Positions 13,614 through 21,975 of a stretch of DNA of 37,078 bases are shown here, one piece after another. Origin of the DNA: Planctomycetia bacterium (lineage in GTDB: Bacteria; Planctomycetota; Planctomycetia; Pirellulales; UBA1268); NCBI GenBank assembly GCA_009926295.1, contig RFPF01000003.1, forward strand, positions 1-37,078, given 5' to 3'. The position numbers were made by a program, and so were the translations under genes. Numbering within the stretch: position 1 is the stretch's first letter; each line of letters starts with the position of its first letter. The notes below the pieces were generated by a model. That model was not told the origin of the DNA. It ran no database searches and saw nothing but the letters and a program-made list of their open reading frames with translations.

Positions 13614-14303
13614 ATGTGCCTCCGCCGCCGACGCCTGCTCGTGCTGGGACTGACGCTGGCCGCGGCGGCACTCCTGCCGGTGCGGGCGTGGAGCGAGCCC
13701 GCCGATCTGCATCCCGAGCTCAAGCGGCTTTCCCCGGCCGAGGAGGTCTGGGTCGATCGCAATCGCGGGGAAGTGGTCGTCGGGGGACGGATCGCGCTCG
13801 ATCGCGGCCCCATCGAGTTCTTCGCCTGTCCCGAAGGCACGAAGGAACACGAGTCGATCGTCGCCACCCGGGCCTCGGCCCGGCTGATCCACGCCGCCCT
13901 GCTCGCCGTCGGCCTCGTGCCGGGAAAACCGGTCTCGTTCGATCCCGCCTACGTGGCGGCCTCGGGGCCCCGTGTCCGCATCCGCATCCGCTGGAAGGCT
14001 GCCGACGGCACCACCAACACGATCGACGCCCGCACGTGGGTCCGTGACGTCAGGACGGATAAACCGCTCGACGCCGACTGGGTGTTCGCGGGCAGCAGTT
14101 TCTGGACCGATCCCGCCGACGGCACCGAGTATTACCAGGCCGATGGGGGCGACCTCGTCTGCGTCTCGAACTTCCCCACCGCCATGATCGACCTCCCGGT
14201 GGAAAGTTCGCAGTCGAACGAGGCGCTGCTCTTCGAGGCCTTCGCGGGCCGTGTGCCGCCGCGCGGCACCTCCGTCGAGATGGTGCTCTCGGCGGCGCCA
14301 TGA
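13614..14303 (+). CDS. Secreted YdjY-domain protein
   Basis: Signal peptide (RRRRLLVLGLTLAAAALL); GPIEFFACPEGTKEHESIV, IHAALLAVG, WVFAGS, GDLVCVSNF. Confidence 0.65.
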   Translation: MCLRRRRLLVLGLTLAAAALLPVRAWSEPADLHPELKRLSPAEEVWVDRNRGEVVVGGRIALDRGPIEFFACPEGTKEHESIVATRASARLIHAALLAVGLVPGKPVSFDPAYVAASGPRVRIRIRWKAADGTTNTIDARTWVRDVRTDKPLDADWVFAGSSFWTDPADGTEYYQADGGDLVCVSNFPTAMIDLPVESSQSNEALLFEAFAGRVPPRGTSVEMVLSAAP

Positions 14304-14318: not shown

Positions 14319-15167
14319 CTACCCGATGCGGCAGTGCGCCAGAATGTCTGCGGCGTTCGCCGCATACCCGGTGTAAAACGGCCCGAATTCCGCATATCGA
14401 GCGCTCGCCTCGTCGAACCTCATCGTGTACACGATGTCCTTGAGGAAGTCGGGACGCCGCGCCCAGAGCGTGACGCCCCACTCCCAGTCGTCGAGGCCGA
14501 CGCTCACGGTGATGAGCTGCGTGACGCGGCCGCCGAACGACATCCCGGTGCGACCGTGCTCGGCCATCAGCCGGCTGCGGTCCTCGAACGGCAGCAGGAA
14601 CCAGTTCTCCCCAACCTCGCGCTTCTTGTTCATCGGGTAGAAGCAGGCGTTCGGCCAGGGCGGCAGGTCGGGCTCGATCCGCGCCTTCCGCATCGCCGGC
14701 TCCCTGGCGGCGTAGCCCTGCACCTTCGCCTTGTAGGCCGCGCCGTCGGGCGACTCGCCCTCGTCCACGAGTCGCTTGGCGTACTGCTCGACGTTCGGTA
14801 CGTACTCGCTCACCTCGGTGAGGCCGACGAACGAGTAGGTCGGCACGACCACCGACCCGAGGCCTCCGGAGAGCAGCCGCTGATGGACTCCCTCGACCAC
14901 CATGGGCGAGGGATCCATGGCCACGACGCCGAAGTCGGCCTTGTGGCCCGCCACGATCCATGCCTGGAGCCGCCGCGGCGCGTCGGATGCGGCCGGGTCG
15001 AGGACCGCGGCGAACCTCCGCCTCACGTCTTCGAGGCCCGCCACGCTCAGCTTCCCGAGCCGGCCGCGGTCGAAGGAGTAGAAGGAGTGCGTGACGTGCC
15101 ATCCCTTCGACGGCTCCAGTGACACCTCGTCGGTCTGCGGTTCGGTTTCGGGGCGGGCGGGCTGCAT
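14319..15167 (-). CDS. chdC: Coproheme decarboxylase (chlorite dismutase family)
   Basis: GHKADF, FYPMNKKR (ChdC Y-P-M-x-K motif), ENWF, EHG (proximal His), VTQLITVSVGLDDWEWGV, MRFDEASARYAEFG. Confidence 0.85.
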   Translation of the reverse strand: MQPARPETEPQTDEVSLEPSKGWHVTHSFYSFDRGRLGKLSVAGLEDVRRRFAAVLDPAASDAPRRLQAWIVAGHKADFGVVAMDPSPMVVEGVHQRLLSGGLGSVVVPTYSFVGLTEVSEYVPNVEQYAKRLVDEGESPDGAAYKAKVQGYAAREPAMRKARIEPDLPPWPNACFYPMNKKREVGENWFLLPFEDRSRLMAEHGRTGMSFGGRVTQLITVSVGLDDWEWGVTLWARRPDFLKDIVYTMRFDEASARYAEFGPFYTGYAANAADILAHCRIG

Positions 15168-15325
15168 GCGGCGAATTTCCGGAGTTTCTCGCCCGCGAAG
15201 TCTACGCCCGCGGCCCGTGCATTCCCAGTGGCGGCGCGAGGCGTGCGGCTGTCCAAGCGTCGCGTCGCCACGATAAGATTGGGGGGCAGGAACGAACCGA
15301 GTACACGCACCAGGGGAGATCGACC

Positions 15326-15598
15326 ATGGGACAGGCGATCGTCGATCCGCAGGAACTGCGGCGTTTCGCCCAGCGACTGCGGCATTTCAGCAACGAGGTC
15401 ATGACCCAGATGCAGACGGTGCAGCGGCAGCTCGCCGCCCTCGGCGCCAGTTGGCGCGACCAGGAACACCAGAAGTTCCAGGAGGAGTTCGAACAGCAGC
15501 TCAACACGTTCGGCCGATTCGTCGAATCGACGGGCGAATACGTCCCCTACCTGATCCGCAAGGCGGAGCGGGTGGAGGAATACCAGCAGCAGCGCTGA
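15326..15598 (+). CDS. WXG100 family (ESAT-6-like) protein, W-R-D variant
   Basis: GGGGAG RBS; 90 aa; IVDPQELRRFAQRL start, central ASWRDQEHQKF turn, helical hairpin size and pattern typical of WXG100. Confidence 0.88.
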   Translation: MGQAIVDPQELRRFAQRLRHFSNEVMTQMQTVQRQLAALGASWRDQEHQKFQEEFEQQLNTFGRFVESTGEYVPYLIRKAERVEEYQQQR

Positions 15599-15609
15599 CA
15601 ACTCCCCAG

Positions 15610-16218
15610 ATGTCCACCCAGGCCGATGTCAAATCGCTCGACACGCTCGCCTTCGTGAAGGCCGCGCTCGCGGCCTACGCCCACGAGAGCGCGGGGGCCC
15701 TCGACGAGATCGAACTCGAGGGCCGCAAGGCCGTCGACTACATCACCGTCGACCAGGCGGCCTTCTGGAAGGCGGAGGTGCGGAGGTGCAACGATCTTGT
15801 GAACCAGGCGATCAAGGATCTCGAGCACTGCCGGGCCTTCAAGAAGGTGGGCGACAACCAGCCCTCCTGCGCCGAGGAGAAAAAGGCGCTGGAGAAGGCG
15901 CGGGCGAAGCTCGCCCGCGCCGAGCGAAAGGCGGAGGCCGTGCGGCGCTGGACGCCGGTCGTGCTCCAGCAGTTTCGGGAGACGTGCGTGCGTCTCGTGC
16001 ACTTTCGCGAAGTGGTCGACGTCGACTGCCCGAAGGCGATCGCCCGGGTCGAGCGGATGCTCAGGTCGCTCGAGGCGTACGGCCAGCTCTCCGGGCCACG
16101 GCCGGACTCGACCGACGCCGCCGGCGGGAGCGCGGCGGCTGTGACGCGGCAGATTGAGGAAGCCCCGTCCGGAACGTCCGCCGCGCCGGTGGTGGACGAC
16201 GCGGGGGCGGCGACATGA
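15610..16218 (+). CDS. Hypothetical helical protein (202 aa) in WXG100/FtsK operon
   Basis: ATG 11 nt after the WXG100 stop; amphipathic coiled-coil sequence; stop overlaps the next start (ATGA). Confidence 0.8.
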   Translation: MSTQADVKSLDTLAFVKAALAAYAHESAGALDEIELEGRKAVDYITVDQAAFWKAEVRRCNDLVNQAIKDLEHCRAFKKVGDNQPSCAEEKKALEKARAKLARAERKAEAVRRWTPVVLQQFRETCVRLVHFREVVDVDCPKAIARVERMLRSLEAYGQLSGPRPDSTDAAGGSAAAVTRQIEEAPSGTSAAPVVDDAGAAT

Positions 16219-16451
16219 AGCACTTCGACCTGTCCAGTGGAGCGGCGAAGATGGCGCTGGCCCTCAAGCAGCTCGACCTGAAGTGGGAGACTGCCAAGGA
16301 GACCTGGAACGACTCCACCAGCAAGGCCTTCCACAAGGAGCACATCGAGCCGCTGATGCCCGAGGTCAAGCAGACGCTCGAGGCGGTGGGGCGGCTCGCA
16401 GAGGTGCTGGCCCGGGCTGCCCGCGACGTGAGCGACCAATTCGATGGCTGA
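16215..16451 (+). CDS. Small WXG100-like helical hairpin protein (78 aa, W-N-D)
   Basis: LKWETAKETWNDSTSKAF aligns with the WRD turn of 15326-15598; translationally coupled on both sides. Confidence 0.78.
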   Translation: MKHFDLSSGAAKMALALKQLDLKWETAKETWNDSTSKAFHKEHIEPLMPEVKQTLEAVGRLAEVLARAARDVSDQFDG

Positions 16452-19400
16452 AGCCCCCGCCGAACCGGCTCCCGACACCCCCTACGATCGCGACGTGCTC
16501 CGGGCACAGATGGCGACGCTGCGCAGCGAGGCTGCGGCCCGGGCGAAGCTCGAGAACGAGATCGCGGCGGAACACGAGGCCGAACGCACCGCGGCCCAAG
16601 CCGACTCCGACCAGAAGCTCGCTGCGACCCGCGAGAAATATGCGCGGGAGATCGACGCCACCCGGCGGGAGTACGAAACGGTGCTCCAGAAGGTGGCGGC
16701 CCAAGCCGCAGCCGAGCAGAAGAAGCTCGACGAGCAGCGCAAGGGCTTCGCCGCCACGATCCTCCGCACCTGCGCCGCCCAGGAGAAGCAGCTCAAGGAC
16801 GACGACCAGTTCGAGGACTCGACGTTCCGCGACACCTGGAAGGACAAGCGCAAGGAACCCAACCAACGCCACGCCCGGGCGGAGAAGGAACTCACCCGCA
16901 CGCTCGCGCAGCTCGACGAGGCGGACCACAAGAGCCTCCAGGCGCTGGCCGGATGGCGGATCACCCCGCCGCCCGAGCCCGGCGACCAGGCTTCACTCGA
17001 CTCCTCGGCCCCGCTCGAATCATCCCCGCCGGCCGGAGACGTGCTCGCACAGCTCGAGCGGCTTCGGGCGGAAATCGTCGAGGCGGCCGCCGCGCTCTGC
17101 GGCCTCGCCACGGCTCGCACGGCGTTCTCCGGGGGCACCCTGGGCGCGGCGATCGTCCTGCCGATCGTCGCCGCTCTCGCCGCCGCTGCGGCAACCTTCT
17201 TCCTCGTGCCCGGCGACATGCAGCTCCGGTCGATCGTGGCGGGCACCGTCGCACTCCTCGTCGCGGGACTCGGCGCCGGACTGTCCGTGGTGCTGGTCGG
17301 GAGGCTGCGGAAGCGGGCTCGGGCGGAGGCCGTCGACCTGCGGGCGAGGCTCGGCGGCGAGATCACCCGCGCCCGCCGCCTGCACGCCGCGGGCCTCCAA
17401 TTCATCAAGGCCCGGCGCGACGACCAGGCCCGCGAACTCGAGGAGCGGTTCAATCGCGAGGTCGCCGAGCGGGCCGCCGTGCTGCAGGCGAAGCTCGCGG
17501 AGGCCGTCGCCCGAAAGGACAAGCAGTCGGCCGAACTCGAGGCGAAGTACCATGCGAAGGTCGCCGAGATCGCCCGCAAGCGGGATTCCTCGAAGCAGGC
17601 CGCCGAAGCGAAGTATCCACCCCGCTTGGCGGCCCTCGAGACCGGCTGCCGGGAGGATCTCGCCCGCCTCGAGTCGGCCAAAGTGGAGCGGCTGGCAGCC
17701 GCGGACGCCCGCCGTGACCAGCGCTGGCGGGAGATGACGGACCGCTGGCGTGAGGCCCGCACCTCGACGGCTGCGGTGTACGAGGAGGTGAGCCGCATCG
17801 ACGCCGAGGCGTTTCGTGGCTGGGAGGCCCTTGCCGACGAGGCCACCCCGCTGCCGGTCGCCTGCCCGCAGGGCCTGCGGTTCGGAACCCAGTCGCTGAC
17901 GCTCGAAAAGGTTCCCGGAGGCGTCTCGCCGCATGCCGAGCTGAACGCGTTCGGACCGGTATCGTGGACACAGCCGGCACTCGTGCCCTTTCCACGCCAC
18001 GCATCCCTCCTCATCAAGACGACGGCCGACCAGAAGGAGACGGCGTCGGCCATGATGCAGGCCCTCATGCTCCGCATCGCCAGCGGCATCCCGGCCGGGC
18101 AGAGCCGCTTCACGATCATCGACCCGCTCGGCCTCGGCAAGCAGTTTGCAGGCTTCATGCATCTCGCCGATCACGACGAACTGCTCGTCACCAGCCGCAT
18201 CTGGACGGAGCCGCAGCAGATCGAGCAGCGGCTCGCCGACATCACCGAACAGATGGAGGTGGTCATCCAGAAGTACCTCCGCAACGAATACGAGTCGATC
18301 GGGGACTACAACGCCGATGCCGAGGTGCCGGAGCCCTACCGATTCGTGGCCGTCGCCAATTTTCCCGCGAACTTCACGGAAACGAGCGCCCGGCGGTTGG
18401 CGAGCATCGCGGCCAGCGGCGCCCGCTGCGGCGTCTACCTCGTCCTCTCGGTCGACACGAAGGCGGCGCTGCCGTCCGACTTCAGCCTTGCCGACGTCGA
18501 GAAGCACTCCACGACGCTCGTCCTCAAGGACGGCACGTTCACGTGGACCGACCCGGAATTCTCCAGGTGGCCGCTGACCGTCGAGCAGGCGCCGTCCGAC
18601 GAGGTGTTCACGCAGATCATCCAGCGGGTGGGGAAGGCCGCCAAGGCGGCCAAGCGGGTGGAGGTGCCCTTCGACCGCGTCGCGCCGAAGGAGGAGGACT
18701 GGTGGAAGGGGAGCACGGCGAGCGAGGTGCTCGCGCCGCTCGGCCCGGCCGGGGCGAAGAAGCTGCAATACCTCAAGCTCGGCAAGGGCACGAGCCAGCA
18801 CGTGCTCATCGCCGGCAAGACGGGCTCCGGAAAATCGACGCTGATGCACGCCATGATCACGAGCCTGGCGTTGCAATACAGCCCCAACGAGATCCAGTTC
18901 TACCTCATCGACTTCAAGAAGGGCGTCGAATTCAAGCTCTACGACCACTACAAGCTGCCGCACGCCCGGGTGATCGCGATCGAGAGCGAGCGCGAGTTCG
19001 GGCTCTCGGTGCTCGAGCAGCTCGACCGCGAGCTCAAGCGCCGCGGCGACCTGTTCCGCGACCTCGCCGTGCAGGACGTGGCTGGGTTTCGCGCCACCGG
19101 CCACGCCGACCCGATGCCGCGGATCCTCCTCATCATCGACGAGTTCCAGGAAATCTTCGTCGAGGACGACAAGTTGGCGCAGGAGGCGGCCCTGATCCTC
19201 GACCGGCTGGTGCGTCAGGGCCGTGCGTTCGGCATGCACGTGCTCCTCGGGTCGCAGACGCTCGGCGGCTCCTACAGCCTCCCCCGCGCCACGATGGGGC
19301 AGATGGCGGTGCGGGTAGCGCTGCAGTGCAACGAAGCCGACTCCAGCCTGATCCTCTCGGAGGACAACACGGCGGCCAGGCTGCTCACGCGGCCGGGCGA

Positions 19401-20616
19401 GGCGATCTACAACGACGCCAACGGCATGGTTGCCGGCAACAACCCGTTCCAGGTGGTGTTTCTCAACGACGAGCGCCGCGAGCGCTACCTCGGGGCCCTT
19501 CGGGCCATGGCCGATCGCCGCACCGACATCCCCGCCGTGCCCCGGATGGTGTTCGACGGCAACGAGGCGGCCGATCCCGCGGGCAACCCGCTGCTGCGCG
19601 AACTCCTCGCCACGAATACCGTCCACGGACGCGAGTTGACGGCGCCCCTGGCGTGGCTCGGTGACGCGATCGCGATCAAGGATCCCACCGCGGCCATCTT
19701 CCGCCGCCAGGGAGGCGCCAACATGCTCGTGGTCGGTCAGCGCGAGGATCTCGGCACCGCTCTGCTGGCGATGTCGATCGTGAGCCTCGCCGCCGGGCAC
19801 GACCCGCACCCGGGCGGGGGCACCGGACGCCCGGCGCGGTTCGTGCTCTTCGAGCCGGCGATCGCCGAGGAGAAGCCGGAGATCATGCTCGCGTCGCTCG
19901 CCGGGAACCTGCCGCACGACGTCGAGGTGGTGGGGCGGCTCGGCGTCCCCGACGCCATGGAGCGGGTCGCGGCCGAGGTGCGACGGCGCGTCGATGGCCA
20001 GGTGCTCGACGGCGAGGCGGTGTTCGTGGTGATCCGCGACCTGGCCCGCTTTCGCGAGCTCCGCAAGGCCGACGACGGCTTCGGCTTCTCTTTCGGATCG
20101 GAGAAGAAGGTTGGGCCGGCACAGCACTTCCTCGACATCCTCAAGGACGGCCCCACCGTCGGCATCCACGTGCTCCTGTGGTGCGATTCGCTCACGAACC
20201 TGATGCGCACCTTCGAGCGGGGCGCCCTCAAGGAGTTCGAACTCCGCGTGCTCTTCCAGATGAGCGGCTCCGACTCCAGCCAGCTCATCGACAATCCGCT
20301 CGCGAGCAAGCTGGGGCCGCAGCGGGCCCTGTTCATCCACGAGGAGACGGGCACCTTCGAGAAGTTCCGCCCCTACGCCTTCCCGAGCCCCGCGTGGCTC
20401 GCCGGCCTGTCGGCCCGGCTCCGCGAGCGGCCGCAGGGCACGCCGGGAGAGCGACCGGCCGCGGCCGCATCCCCGCAGCCGCCGCCATCGGCTGCTGCGG
20501 AGCAGGGCGAGACGTTCGACTTCGGCTTCGGCGGCGCGGAGGGCGAGTTCAACTTCACGAAGTTCCTCGACGATCCGCCGAATCCCGGTGCCGACCCGAT
20601 CCCGCCTGCGCCTTAG
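16444..20616 (+). CDS. Membrane-anchored FtsK/SpoIIIE-family ATPase, EccC/EssC-like (T7SS-type)
   Basis: N-terminal coiled coil, two TM helices (~17130-17300), coiled coil, degenerate RecA-like domain (FTIIDP...SGARCGVY), intact domain HVLIAGKTGSGKS / YLIDFKKGVEF / LLIIDEFQ / QGRAFGMHVLLGSQ, and a third degenerate domain (NMLVVG...DGPTVGIHV). Confidence 0.9.
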   Translation: MAEAPAEPAPDTPYDRDVLRAQMATLRSEAAARAKLENEIAAEHEAERTAAQADSDQKLAATREKYAREIDATRREYETVLQKVAAQAAAEQKKLDEQRKGFAATILRTCAAQEKQLKDDDQFEDSTFRDTWKDKRKEPNQRHARAEKELTRTLAQLDEADHKSLQALAGWRITPPPEPGDQASLDSSAPLESSPPAGDVLAQLERLRAEIVEAAAALCGLATARTAFSGGTLGAAIVLPIVAALAAAAATFFLVPGDMQLRSIVAGTVALLVAGLGAGLSVVLVGRLRKRARAEAVDLRARLGGEITRARRLHAAGLQFIKARRDDQARELEERFNREVAERAAVLQAKLAEAVARKDKQSAELEAKYHAKVAEIARKRDSSKQAAEAKYPPRLAALETGCREDLARLESAKVERLAAADARRDQRWREMTDRWREARTSTAAVYEEVSRIDAEAFRGWEALADEATPLPVACPQGLRFGTQSLTLEKVPGGVSPHAELNAFGPVSWTQPALVPFPRHASLLIKTTADQKETASAMMQALMLRIASGIPAGQSRFTIIDPLGLGKQFAGFMHLADHDELLVTSRIWTEPQQIEQRLADITEQMEVVIQKYLRNEYESIGDYNADAEVPEPYRFVAVANFPANFTETSARRLASIAASGARCGVYLVLSVDTKAALPSDFSLADVEKHSTTLVLKDGTFTWTDPEFSRWPLTVEQAPSDEVFTQIIQRVGKAAKAAKRVEVPFDRVAPKEEDWWKGSTASEVLAPLGPAGAKKLQYLKLGKGTSQHVLIAGKTGSGKSTLMHAMITSLALQYSPNEIQFYLIDFKKGVEFKLYDHYKLPHARVIAIESEREFGLSVLEQLDRELKRRGDLFRDLAVQDVAGFRATGHADPMPRILLIIDEFQEIFVEDDKLAQEAALILDRLVRQGRAFGMHVLLGSQTLGGSYSLPRATMGQMAVRVALQCNEADSSLILSEDNTAARLLTRPGEAIYNDANGMVAGNNPFQVVFLNDERRERYLGALRAMADRRTDIPAVPRMVFDGNEAADPAGNPLLRELLATNTVHGRELTAPLAWLGDAIAIKDPTAAIFRRQGGANMLVVGQREDLGTALLAMSIVSLAAGHDPHPGGGTGRPARFVLFEPAIAEEKPEIMLASLAGNLPHDVEVVGRLGVPDAMERVAAEVRRRVDGQVLDGEAVFVVIRDLARFRELRKADDGFGFSFGSEKKVGPAQHFLDILKDGPTVGIHVLLWCDSLTNLMRTFERGALKEFELRVLFQMSGSDSSQLIDNPLASKLGPQRALFIHEETGTFEKFRPYAFPSPAWLAGLSARLRERPQGTPGERPAAAASPQPPPSAAAEQGETFDFGFGGAEGEFNFTKFLDDPPNPGADPIPPAP

Positions 20617-20658
20617 GCCGGGATCGAGCCCGCTGCATCGTGGCCCCGCGCGGCGGCA

Positions 20659-21975
20659 TCAGCGCCGCAGCGTGTCGCTCGTGAGATGCCCGAAGAGCGT
20701 TTCGCGACCCCGCAGCACGTAGAACTTGAGCGGACCGAGGTTGTCCTCGCGGGCCTTGTCGAGCACGTACACCACGTTGTCGCCGGTGATCGTCTCCCAC
20801 ACGTGCAGGCCCACGAGGATGTCCCCGGCCCGAATGCCCTGCTCCGTCGCCGGACCGTCGTCCCGAACCTCGCGAACGAGCAGCCCGCCGCGGTATCGCG
20901 ACTGCAGCTTCTGCACCCTGGCAAGTGGCACAGCCTCCACCCGCAGGCCGAGCTCGAGCCAGCACCGCTCCTCGACGGTGAGCGACAGGTCGCGGGCGGC
21001 CGCCAGCGGCAGGTCGAGTCGCTCCTCGGCGCCGGCCCGCAGGACCGTCACCGGCACGCTGTCGCCCGCCTTACGGCCGAGTAACGCCCGCTCGAGGTCG
21101 AGCTGGCTCGCGACGGGCAGGTCGCACACCCGTGTGATCACGTCGCCGGCCTTCACGCCGATCGTCTCCGCGGGACTCTCCCCGTGGACGGCCTCGACGA
21201 CGACACCTCGTTGGCCGTCTCCCCTGCCGACGATGCCATGCCACGTACGGTCGACCCGCTCCACCGAGAGCAGTTCCGTCACCACGGCGAGCGCCTTGTC
21301 GATCGGGATCGCGAATCCGATACCCTGAGCCCCGGCACGAACCGCCACGTTGATCCCGATCATCTCCCCGTTGATGTTGAGGAGCGGCCCGCCGGAATTG
21401 CCGGGATTGATGCTGGCATCGGTCTGGATGAGGTCGTCGTAGCGTTGCGTCCGGCTCACCTCGACGTCGCGGTGGAGAGCCGAGATGATGCCGCGCGTCA
21501 CCGTGTGCTCGTAGCCGAACGCGTTGCCCAGGGCGAGCACCGTCTCGCCGATCATGAGGTCGCTCGACGTCCCGATCGTGATCACCGGGAGCGGGGCGTC
21601 GGCCGCGACTTTGATCACCGCGAGGTCGGTTCGCGGATCGTGCGAGACGAGCGTCGCCGACACCGTCCTGCCGGATGCGAGCGTGACCTCGATCCGCCGC
21701 ACCCCCTCGACAACGTGGTAGTTTGTCACCACGTACCCGCGGGGGTCGATCACGACCCCCGTGCCCATGCCGTTGACCTTCCGCTGCTCGGCGCCGGGGT
21801 CATCCTCACCGGCCGGGACGAACTTCTGGCCGTGGATGTTCACGACCGAGTCCCGCGTCGACTCGATGGCCCGGACGATGGCGGTGCGCCGCGACTCGAC
21901 CGCGGCCGCCGGGCGGATGAGCGCGGCGCCGCACGCGATGGCCGCGACCACGGCGAAGAACCGCGTACACCGCAT
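20659..21975 (-). CDS. HtrA/DegP-like trypsin serine protease with two PDZ domains
   Basis: Signal peptide; TNYHVV (His), DLAVIK (Asp), TDASINPGNSGGPL (Ser); two PDZ-like repeats (SPAETIGVKAGD, GPATEQGIRAGD). Confidence 0.93.
   Translation of the reverse strand: MRCTRFFAVVAAIACGAALIRPAAAVESRRTAIVRAIESTRDSVVNIHGQKFVPAGEDDPGAEQRKVNGMGTGVVIDPRGYVVTNYHVVEGVRRIEVTLASGRTVSATLVSHDPRTDLAVIKVAADAPLPVITIGTSSDLMIGETVLALGNAFGYEHTVTRGIISALHRDVEVSRTQRYDDLIQTDASINPGNSGGPLLNINGEMIGINVAVRAGAQGIGFAIPIDKALAVVTELLSVERVDRTWHGIVGRGDGQRGVVVEAVHGESPAETIGVKAGDVITRVCDLPVASQLDLERALLGRKAGDSVPVTVLRAGAEERLDLPLAAARDLSLTVEERCWLELGLRVEAVPLARVQKLQSRYRGGLLVREVRDDGPATEQGIRAGDILVGLHVWETITGDNVVYVLDKAREDNLGPLKFYVLRGRETLFGHLTSDTLRR

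Follow-up and report, generated by a model that had tools for sequence, protein, structure and literature searches.

We identified a four-gene operon related to type VII secretion systems (T7SS) in a 37,078-nucleotide (nt) contig of the planctomycete assembly GCA_009926295.1 (RFPF01000003.1, positions 1 to 37,078, called the window below). The operon encodes a WXG100-family protein of 90 amino acids (aa) (WXGa), a helical protein of 202 aa (p202), a small helical protein of 78 aa (WXGb) and a 1390-aa ATPase of the FtsK/SpoIIIE type, as listed in Table 1. We conclude that it is very probably the planctomycete form of a separate T7SS-like lineage, distinct from T7SSa of Actinomycetota and from T7SSb-j of Bacillota. 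In teaching, the T7SS is usually assigned to Gram-positive bacteria and mycobacteria.

The ATPase was closer to EccC/EssC than to FtsK in four comparisons, namely NCBIfam, PDB, Foldseek and a phylogenetic tree. Among the NCBIfam models, EccCa, EssC and EccCb ranked first (E 1e-29 to 1e-32), while FtsK matched at 4.6e-7. Sequence matches of the active domain in the PDB were led by T. curvata EccC (E 2.3e-33) and the EccC5 D1 region, with FtsK at about 1e-11. We built a tree of the active domain with IQ-TREE (28 rows, 284 columns), in which the 11 planctomycete ATPases formed one clade (97/96) and grouped together with five plasmid ATPases (98/97). This group was sister to the four EccC/EssC D1 domains (95/95), with a joint support of 97/95, and planctomycete and proteobacterial FtsK fell outside (99/98). 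The ATPase clade thus appears from these alignments to be the sister of EccC/EssC and not to lie inside it. A separate true FtsK was found in each of the four relatives' genomes searched; in the window's own genome, FtsK_SpoIIIE matches also occurred at two contig ends, which we read as pieces of the true FtsK cut by assembly.

The models point to a build of the ATPase that differs from those of the known systems, in which one active-looking domain stands between two degenerate ones, a predicted third ATPase architecture. Pfam gave a single FtsK_SpoIIIE stretch (residues 761-939, E 1.6e-31), and the whole protein carries one Walker A and one Walker B motif; none of the 18 Pfam families listed (E up to 0.1) was FHA. 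By hhalign, the C-terminal domain was homologous to the active domain (probability 95.5%, E 1.4e-8, 208 columns), while the first P-loop-like domain gave no significant match to it, although this first domain is itself highly conserved (69% mean column identity). A structure model of residues 475-1330, built from 11 sequences and of middling quality (mean predicted local distance difference test score (pLDDT) 68.4, predicted template modelling score 0.44), shows three alpha/beta domains, and Foldseek matched it best to EccC of T. curvata, in the cytoplasmic domain (E 3.3e-24, 868 columns). VIA-align superposed the middle domain on the FtsK motor (Z 22.4, root mean square deviation 3.1 over 255 residues), the last two domains (model positions 265-842) on EccC D2-D3 (Z 21.3), and the first two on EssC D2-D3 (Z 21.1). 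The first domain (model positions 1-262) matched EccC D3 at Z 14.3, the YukB DUF region at Z 12.5 and RecA-like folds at Z 10-11. Upstream of these domains, a Kyte-Doolittle window scan placed two hydrophobic helices at residues 226-259 and 261-289; residues 1-170 consist to 74% of A/E/R/K/Q/L/D with little P/G, and residues 290-470 to 74.6%. Such a composition suggests that coiled coils flank a membrane hairpin whose two ends are probably cytoplasmic.

Three further observations concern FtsK-like proteins of this kind. The active domain (residues 747-1027) matched PHROG 1358, 'FtsK/SpoIIIE-like protein' (1382 positions), at E 1.4e-49, which is stronger than any NCBIfam EccC/EssC match of that domain; the PHROGs matches were confined to this generic FtsK-type domain. 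One relative's genome encodes a third FtsK_SpoIIIE gene (L114 = G016:C1:1034528-1037998; L, G and P numbers are our handles for loci, genomes and proteins), a 1794-aa frame matching at E 2.9e-34, which branches alone between FtsK and the T7-like ATPases. At another locus, in an Isosphaeraceae metagenome-assembled genome (MAG) (L104, 9351-12593), the ATPase is split into three frames of 475, 625 and 239 aa, which may reflect assembly frameshifts or decay of the gene.

WXGa is a true member of the WXG100 family, scoring 41.1 bits against PF06013 (E 2.2e-10), above the cut-off of 27.3, and it is the single WXG100 match in its own genome. WXGb matched the same family weakly and below the cut-off (19.5 bits, E 1.2e-3). 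In 12/12 aligned orthologues WXGa is exactly 90 aa long, with a mean column identity of 74%; its W-R-D motif is invariant in these 12 orthologues, the Helicobacter relative described below having W-G-D, and its C-terminus carries an invariant R-K-A-E-R ... Y stretch. WXGb is helical and less conserved than WXGa, and its position is kept in all loci examined. Across the 44 loci with all genes present, the median identity to the window was 86.7% for WXGa, 72.6% for the neighbouring chdC, 72.0% for WXGb, 66.8% for p202 and 65.9% for the ATPase, and the identity of WXGa exceeded that of chdC in 44/44 loci; these genomes are kin, and the comparison is a description and not a statistical test. Among the three small proteins, hhalign comparisons of WXGb with WXGa, p202 with WXGa and p202 with WXGb were all insignificant (probabilities 0.6-4.5%). 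In a complex prediction of WXGa, WXGb and p202 residues 1-165, the scores with p202 as the partner were 0.78-0.79, and a control with an unrelated protein as chain 1 scored 0.83, so that the prediction speaks neither for nor against binding.

For the canonical partners of T7SS ATPases we searched the window's own genome, an assembly of 3.25 Mb in 472 contigs (one of them the window) that is 94% complete, together with as many as five genomes of relatives; the one-contig genome G035 was one of these. EssB/YukC (PF10140) was not found in the own genome and five relatives, nor EsaA (TIGR03929) in five genomes, the own among them, while both controls were positive in B. subtilis. YukD/EsaB (PF08817), whose control was likewise positive in B. 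subtilis, gave no match in the own genome, EssA not being part of this search. On the actinobacterial side, EccB (PF05108) gave no match in the own genome or the five relatives, and EccD (TIGR03920) none in the own genome; both controls were positive in Corynebacterium (C. glutamicum), and mycosin was not part of the search. EccE (PF11203) had no matches in five genomes, but its control matched nowhere.

A sequence-only reading of the window had already described much of this. Its four genes with their gap and two overlaps were confirmed, with the same coordinates, by the list of open reading frames (ORFs), and its flanks, a divergent chdC and a convergent HtrA, by Pfam. The T7SS kinship that it drew from the WXG100 gene and the ATPase held, both PF06013 and PF01580 being matched in the profile searches it had suggested and EccC/EssC being nearest in NCBIfam, PDB and the tree; it was also right that the accessory components are lacking, as far as EssB, EsaA and EccB (own genome and up to five relatives) and EccD and YukD (own genome) are concerned. 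Of the two WXG100-type genes that it named, the 90-aa one stood and the 78-aa one is a weak match, and W-x-G occurs in neither. The helical nature ascribed to the 202-aa gene was borne out by an AlphaFold2 hairpin model. The ORF list and Pfam annotation of the window gave no toxin, immunity or mobility genes in the operon or its flanks, as had been noted, and the operon is a chromosomal single copy with even G+C (about 0.65-0.75 per kb along the window); a mobile operon was rejected in view of the even G+C, the lack of mobility genes and the conservation described below. The supposed diderm host is in keeping with an Omp85/BamA gene in the own genome (E 2e-41), a family whose control was positive only in diderm-type reference genomes.

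Relatives outside the phylum were found on plasmids. A tblastn search of the active domain against 72,556 plasmids gave five records clearly closer than any EccC/EssC (about 30% identity, E 1e-16 to 1e-21): Rhodococcus sp. AH-ZY2 (42% identity, E 8e-70), Caballeronia sp. SBC2 (42%), Deinococcus actinosclerus (38%), R. pseudokoreensis (37%) and Helicobacter sp. NHP19-012 (34%). Profiles of the three ATPase domains of the window matched in order in 5/5 plasmid ATPases, and the WXGa profile matched an 87-89-aa neighbour in 4/5 plasmid loci, with E values (scaled to a nominal database of 1000) of 1.6e-22, 2.2e-12, 4.7e-9 and 2.4e-6; the R. pseudokoreensis locus gave no match to this profile. In Helicobacter and Caballeronia, the gene order of WXG protein, long protein, small protein and ATPase is as in planctomycetes. 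The Caballeronia module (L107, 2943-14765) reads WXG100, 436 aa, 113 aa, 76 aa and ATPase, with a VWA gene before it and CARF, VWA, PP2C, Ser/Thr kinase and AAA genes after it, a setting in agreement with the 'TerY-P triad' island known from H. pylori. The Helicobacter module reads 89-aa WXG100-like protein, 340-aa protein with a WHH/colicin-DNase C-terminus, SUKH immunity protein, 77-aa protein and ATPase, so that a nuclease toxin gene occupies the position of p202 and an immunity gene follows it. At the Rhodococcus AH-ZY2 locus, the N-terminal part of a 314-aa neighbour matched the p202 profile (E 4.2e-5).

These minimal modules also differ from the planctomycete operon. Their ATPases have 823-947 aa, the exception being the 1322-aa ATPase of Rhodococcus AH-ZY2 with its different N-terminus, whereas the planctomycete ATPase carries about 470 additional N-terminal residues, predicted as coiled coil, membrane hairpin and coiled coil. 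Beside the ATPases of Deinococcus and R. pseudokoreensis there is a small coiled-coil protein, encoded separately, whose C-terminus forms a hydrophobic (membrane) helix, and such a protein may replace the fused N-terminus of the planctomycete ATPase. The middle gene of planctomycetes encodes no toxin and the operon no immunity gene, while the Helicobacter module has both; the planctomycete system is chromosomal and widely conserved, while the minimal modules are plasmid- or island-borne. Two of the plasmid loci have neighbours of other kinds. In R. pseudokoreensis (plasmid locus L126, 1761-7749), the related ATPase is immediately preceded by genes for Hsp70-family, TPR and GrpE proteins, and in an H. 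pylori pan-genome paper 'DnaK homolog, WxG100 family' is one co-occurring cluster (PMC4978471); a recurrent chaperone link of WXG-FtsK modules may be present. In Rhodococcus AH-ZY2 (plasmid locus L106, 6709-15824), the ATPase, whose different N-terminal part of about 500 residues has no membrane helix, has two genes with a TerD-family annotation and a DUF475 gene in its neighbourhood.

Within planctomycetes, we found the four-gene arrangement to be conserved far beyond chance, as it recurs in 11/11 loci fetched from the order, in 74/75 evaluable named loci and in 7/7 loci from other families of the phylum. The named set comprised 80 loci retrieved by means of the WXGa alignment, of which 75 had at least 1500 bases downstream. 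By tblastn the full order was present in 71/75, and four misses were rechecked with profiles: in three Isosphaeraceae loci, including that of the cultured Singulisphaera sp. Ch08, p202 was in place (E 1e-57 to 1e-61), and the fourth contig ends directly after WXGb. The gene p202 was present in 32/41 relatives' genomes (23/24 genomes of the window's family; by family, eight of the 16 others sampled from the order), and its profile matched in 41/301 genomes drawn evenly across the phylum. More than 580 genome loci encode a WXGa relative, and close relatives of the ATPase form at least 7982 clusters at 90% identity in metagenomes, mostly named FtsK. One family of the same class (loci L127-L130) departs from this, its genes being scattered. 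In two one-contig genomes of this family, ATPase, p202 and WXGa lie megabases apart, the three sites being at 2.50, 4.30 and 5.92 Mb of G082:C1 and at 0.24, 0.71 and 2.66 Mb of G181:C1, with WXGb beside p202 in one of them and none detected beside p202 in G181. A third genome has WXGa and p202 on different contigs, while in a fourth, of a sister genus (G286), the two genes are still adjacent. Where the genes are scattered, they are retained as single, well-conserved copies. Altogether, the conservation within the phylum is strong and looks mostly vertical.

Two checks proposed in the sequence-only reading came out with a qualification, and one of its inferences held only in part. Synteny across Planctomycetota was upheld by the loci above, except for the family with scattered genes. 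The ATPase does group with EccC/EssC rather than with FtsK, as sister to and not as part of that group. The inferred stripped-down T7SS-like machine is not a reduced form of T7SSa or T7SSb, as the ATPases form a separate clade with three P-loop-like domains, which is shared with the plasmid WXG-FtsK modules.

The protein p202 founds a large, undescribed family without a Pfam model. Neither Pfam (E up to 0.1) nor NCBIfam gave a family for it, and no consistent Pfam family was found in 98 relatives, while relatives numbered 666 at E up to 1e-3 (90% clusters) and 1474 representatives at 50% clustering, 725 of the latter at E up to 1e-10. The AlphaFold2 model (98 sequences, mean pLDDT 87.7, about 98 along the helices) predicts with high confidence one long hairpin of roughly 70 residues per arm. 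A Foldseek search of the PDB returned no match at E up to 1e-3, and among 48,161 chains compared by VIA-align the best was an Smc coiled coil at Z 11.2; YscO, RipA, colicin and PspA/Vipp1 followed at Z 9-11. Assignment of a function from these folds was rejected, since Z 9-11 is common in VIA-align for any long helical hairpin. Some members of the family are longer: 9/9 homologues of 339-380 aa end in an Imm33-like domain (PF24719) scoring above cut-off (P0137, P0155, P0166, P0200, P0205, P0206, P0242, P0243 and P0247), while a tenth longer homologue scanned (292 aa) has no Imm33-like domain, and a 433-member planctomycete cluster of a protein atlas also carries this domain. These fusions indicate that the p202 hairpin can act as an N-terminal module before another domain.

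We compared the operon with the known systems. In T7SSa (ESX), EccC works with EccB, EccD, EccE and MycP, and EsxA/EsxB are the WXG100 pair. The planctomycete operon resembles it in that a WXG100 protein is encoded, two small helical-hairpin genes share an operon and the ATPase has a predicted two-helix membrane anchor; the active domain of this ATPase matches EccC D1 best. It differs in that EccB and EccD were not found, the ATPases form a separate clade, the small proteins lack W-x-G, and the ATPase has three domains with one Walker A, whereas EccC has four FtsK-like domains according to a 2023 review (PMC10765036). Compared with T7SSb-j, the planctomycete ATPase fold matches EssC D2-D3, as described above, and a long helical N-terminal carrier together with two small WXG100-like partners is a shared logic only; published T7SS toxins have two small WXG100-like partners each in their export (PMC9600955; 10.64898/2026.08.24.746431). 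The planctomycete ATPase differs from T7SSb in having no FHA domain, EssB/YukC, EsaA and YukD were not found, and p202 has no Pfam LXG match, its likeness to LXG proteins being one of position and shape only. In these systems, EssC/TsxC works with EsaA, EssA, EssB and EsaB/TsxB, and LXG toxins have small partner proteins. With the FtsK translocase, the operon's ATPase has the RecA-like motor fold in common, while it belongs to a separate clade and scores far under the cut-off of the FtsK model.

As to what the operon does, we slightly favour an export mechanism in which a bundle of helical hairpins would be moved by the ATPase into the periplasm. While still in the cytoplasm, WXGa, WXGb and p202 would come together as one elongated bundle of helices, in which p202 would play the role that LXG-type carrier domains play for T7SSb toxins, here with a short disordered tail only. 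The invariant C-terminus of WXGa would dock on the degenerate C-terminal ATPase domain, in the way that the WXG100 signal sequence binds a pocket on EccC/EssC ATPase domains (PMC11217815). The ATPase would oligomerise, with no channel other than that formed by its two-helix membrane hairpins, and the folded bundle would be driven across the cytoplasmic membrane by the single active domain. A carrier role of p202 is suggested by the toxin-immunity pair at its position in Helicobacter and by the domain fusions of the family. As no outer-membrane part is evident, the periplasm or envelope would be the likely destination, and the strong conservation, the single copy and the lack of a toxin favour a housekeeping role in the envelope over warfare.

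A number of observations weigh against this interpretation, some against the kinship and some against export. The W-x-G motif is found in neither small protein, WXGa having W-R-D and WXGb W-N-D. The NCBIfam scores of the ATPase are far under the cut-offs of the models that rank first (EccCa 110.8 bits against 509.15, EccCb 101.8 against 346.55, EssC 104.9 against 778.4). The tree has long branches and only four EccC/EssC rows, which is a small sample, and the ATPase model is of the middling quality given above. The very high conservation of WXGa is unusual for a secreted effector. Clear membrane helices were found in none of the five plasmid ATPases, and the lineage may therefore be no translocon or may need a separate anchor. 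A channel made up solely of the 12 helices that a hexamer of hairpins would supply has no known precedent among ESX structures. The Imm33-like domains take their name from immunity proteins, which act inside the cell, and would be an odd export cargo. The soluble-looking related ATPases, the extreme conservation of WXGa and the immunity-type domain on some p202 forms together keep a non-secretory role well alive.

Such a role would be that of a membrane-associated remodelling or regulatory complex, acting in budding division, invagination or envelope stress, with the WXG100-like proteins as cofactors. We consider it unlikely, although it is the strongest competitor. WXGa evolves more slowly than the neighbouring haem-synthesis enzyme in 44/44 loci, the operon is a toxin-less single copy in a housekeeping neighbourhood (RpoD, CinA, chdC), related ATPases have no clear membrane helices, and about 400 residues of the ATPase have a coiled-coil composition. 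Relatives beside Hsp70-TPR-GrpE genes or beside VWA, PP2C, Ser/Thr kinase and CARF genes suggest cytoplasmic signalling or chaperone contexts, and some p202 homologues are fused to Imm33-like domains. ESX-dependent development in Streptomyces belongs to the same background. However, the characterised proteins closest to the WXG100 protein and to the ATPase are components of export systems in either case, without export it is hard to account for the Helicobacter toxin-immunity pair at the place of the cargo, and the matches of p202 to YscO, PspA/Vipp1 and Smc are at the level common for any long hairpin.

It is improbable that the operon is a conflict system, used for toxin export against competitors or for anti-phage defence in the manner of its plasmid relatives. 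The closest non-planctomycete relatives do lie on plasmids, with a WHH nuclease and SUKH in Helicobacter or CARF, VWA, PP2C, kinase and AAA genes in Caballeronia, and the H. pylori WxG and FtsK genes are placed in a TerY-P triad island (PMC4978471). PADLOC matched the ATPase domain to SspH (2.3e-27) and mad8 (5.7e-23), but these matches cover only a generic FtsK-like domain, and PADLOC gave no credible match for the three small proteins. Moreover, the operon and its flanks hold no toxin, immunity or mobility gene, the operon is a single copy with even G+C, and its presence in 23/24 genomes of its own family, with the genes kept even when scattered, is the opposite of patchy, island-like defence genes. 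That the ATPase is a second DNA translocase, an FtsK paralogue with unrelated small genes as neighbours, is scarcely credible: the protein is entered in public records as 'DNA translocase FtsK' or as 'cell division protein FtsK' and its active domain superposes on the FtsK motor, but it scores 27.9 bits against a cut-off of 1566 in the NCBIfam FtsK model, is separated from FtsK in the tree at 99/98, coexists with a true FtsK, and is linked to the small genes across the phylum and in other phyla.

The T7SS-like lineage proposed here might be taken further. In a bolder version, which we regard as rather doubtful, the operon would be an ancient housekeeping branch of type VII-like systems at work in a diderm, in which the ATPase is the sole membrane part, its own hairpins form the channel, and a constant, toxin-less three-protein passenger serves planctomycete envelope or endomembrane biology. 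If this were true, it would show the irreducible core of the T7SS, and the toxin-carrying plasmid versions and the Gram-positive systems would be elaborations of that core. In any case, the operon provides the field with a defined third ATPase architecture, as predicted above, and with p202 as a new conserved partner family. The natural series from toxin-carrying plasmid forms to toxin-less chromosomal forms could serve the study of a minimal translocon and of toxin-free WXG100 roles, and Singulisphaera sp. Ch08 is a cultured carrier with the full set.

The combination of WXG100 and FtsK in Gram-negative bacteria is already in print; the planctomycete form is new. A 2023 review notes a limited number of WXG100 genes adjoining FtsK/SpoIIIE in certain Gram-negatives, whose standing as secretion systems had yet to be confirmed (PMC10765036); unlike that 'a limited number', the planctomycete module is neither rare nor sporadic. 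A 2016 H. pylori pan-genome paper calls WxG plus FtsK a 'minimal set' of a T7SS, names HP0062/HP0066, and reports a cluster with an HNH-superfamily nuclease and one WxG-FtsK copy in a TerY-P triad island (PMC4978471). The phyla listed by Sutcliffe are, according to a citing paper, Cyanobacteria, Lentisphaerae, Proteobacteria and Verrucomicrobiae (PMC6471051), and the survey that defined T7SSc-j is restricted to Gram-positive phyla (PMC11217815). No description of a planctomycete WXG100 or type VII system was found in the literature searched, in which key T7SS papers were represented by citing passages, and a 2025 FEMS review of the phylum contains no 'secretion system', 'type VII' or 'WXG'.

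Table 1. Features of the operon and its flanks in the window (positions are those of the window)
Feature	Position (nt)	Strand	Description
WXGa	15326-15598	+	90 aa, WXG100 family
p202	15610-16218	+	202 aa; gap to WXGa 11 nt
p202 parts	15610..16218	+	AlphaFold2: predicted helices 8-77 and 88-160, disordered tail 161-202
WXGb	16215-16451	+	78 aa; ATGA overlap with p202
ATPase	16444-20616	+	1390 aa, T7SS-type FtsK/SpoIIIE; 8-nt overlap with WXGb
ATPase residues 1-225	16444..17118	+	Helix/coiled-coil composition and Pro-rich linker; sequence poorly conserved, length kept
ATPase residues 226-289	17119..17310	+	Two hydrophobic helices with almost no loop; probable membrane hairpin with both ends on one side
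ATPase residues 290-470	17311..17853	+	Second helix/coiled-coil region (putative stalk), from composition
ATPase residues 500-745	17941..18678	+	Degenerate P-loop-like domain without Walker A; position of the EccC/EssC 'DUF' domain
ATPase residues 746-1030	18679..19533	+	Only active-looking domain; PF01580
Walker A, GKTGSGKS	18814-18837	+	Residue 791, active domain
Walker B	19126-19143	+	Residue 895, active domain
ATPase residues 1040-1325	19561..20418	+	Degenerate FtsK-like domain, Walker A lost
ATPase residues 1326-1390	20419..20613	+	Pro/Gly-rich tail, only in the window's own family (alignment)
Shine-Dalgarno-like AGGGGAG	15312..15318	+	7 nt 5' of the WXGa ATG; read from sequence
229-aa protein	13614-14303	+	N-terminal hydrophobic segment, no Pfam family
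chdC	14319-15167	-	Chlorite-dismutase family, divergent flank of WXGa; Pfam E 1.6e-50
HtrA-type protease	20659-21975	-	With PDZ domains, convergent flank of the ATPase; Pfam

The four genes of the operon are co-directional, and RpoD and CinA are also encoded in the window, further out. A scan of positions 14900-21000 found no promoters or terminators, such a scan being uninformative for this phylum. The 229-aa protein and chdC accompany the operon in 5/5 fetched loci of the window's own family; chdC is divergent to WXGa in most named loci of this family and is not beside the operon in six loci of other families. Long antisense or out-of-frame ORFs overlap real genes, reaching 1106 aa (17020-20340, minus strand, inside the ATPase gene), and we read them as a by-product of the G+C content of about 70% and not as genes. 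The relatives of the window's genome are labelled as Planctomycetia, Pirellulales or Planctomycetaceae MAGs, many of them from lakes, and near-identical DNA was present in 20 sequencing runs of eight studies, mostly from freshwater.

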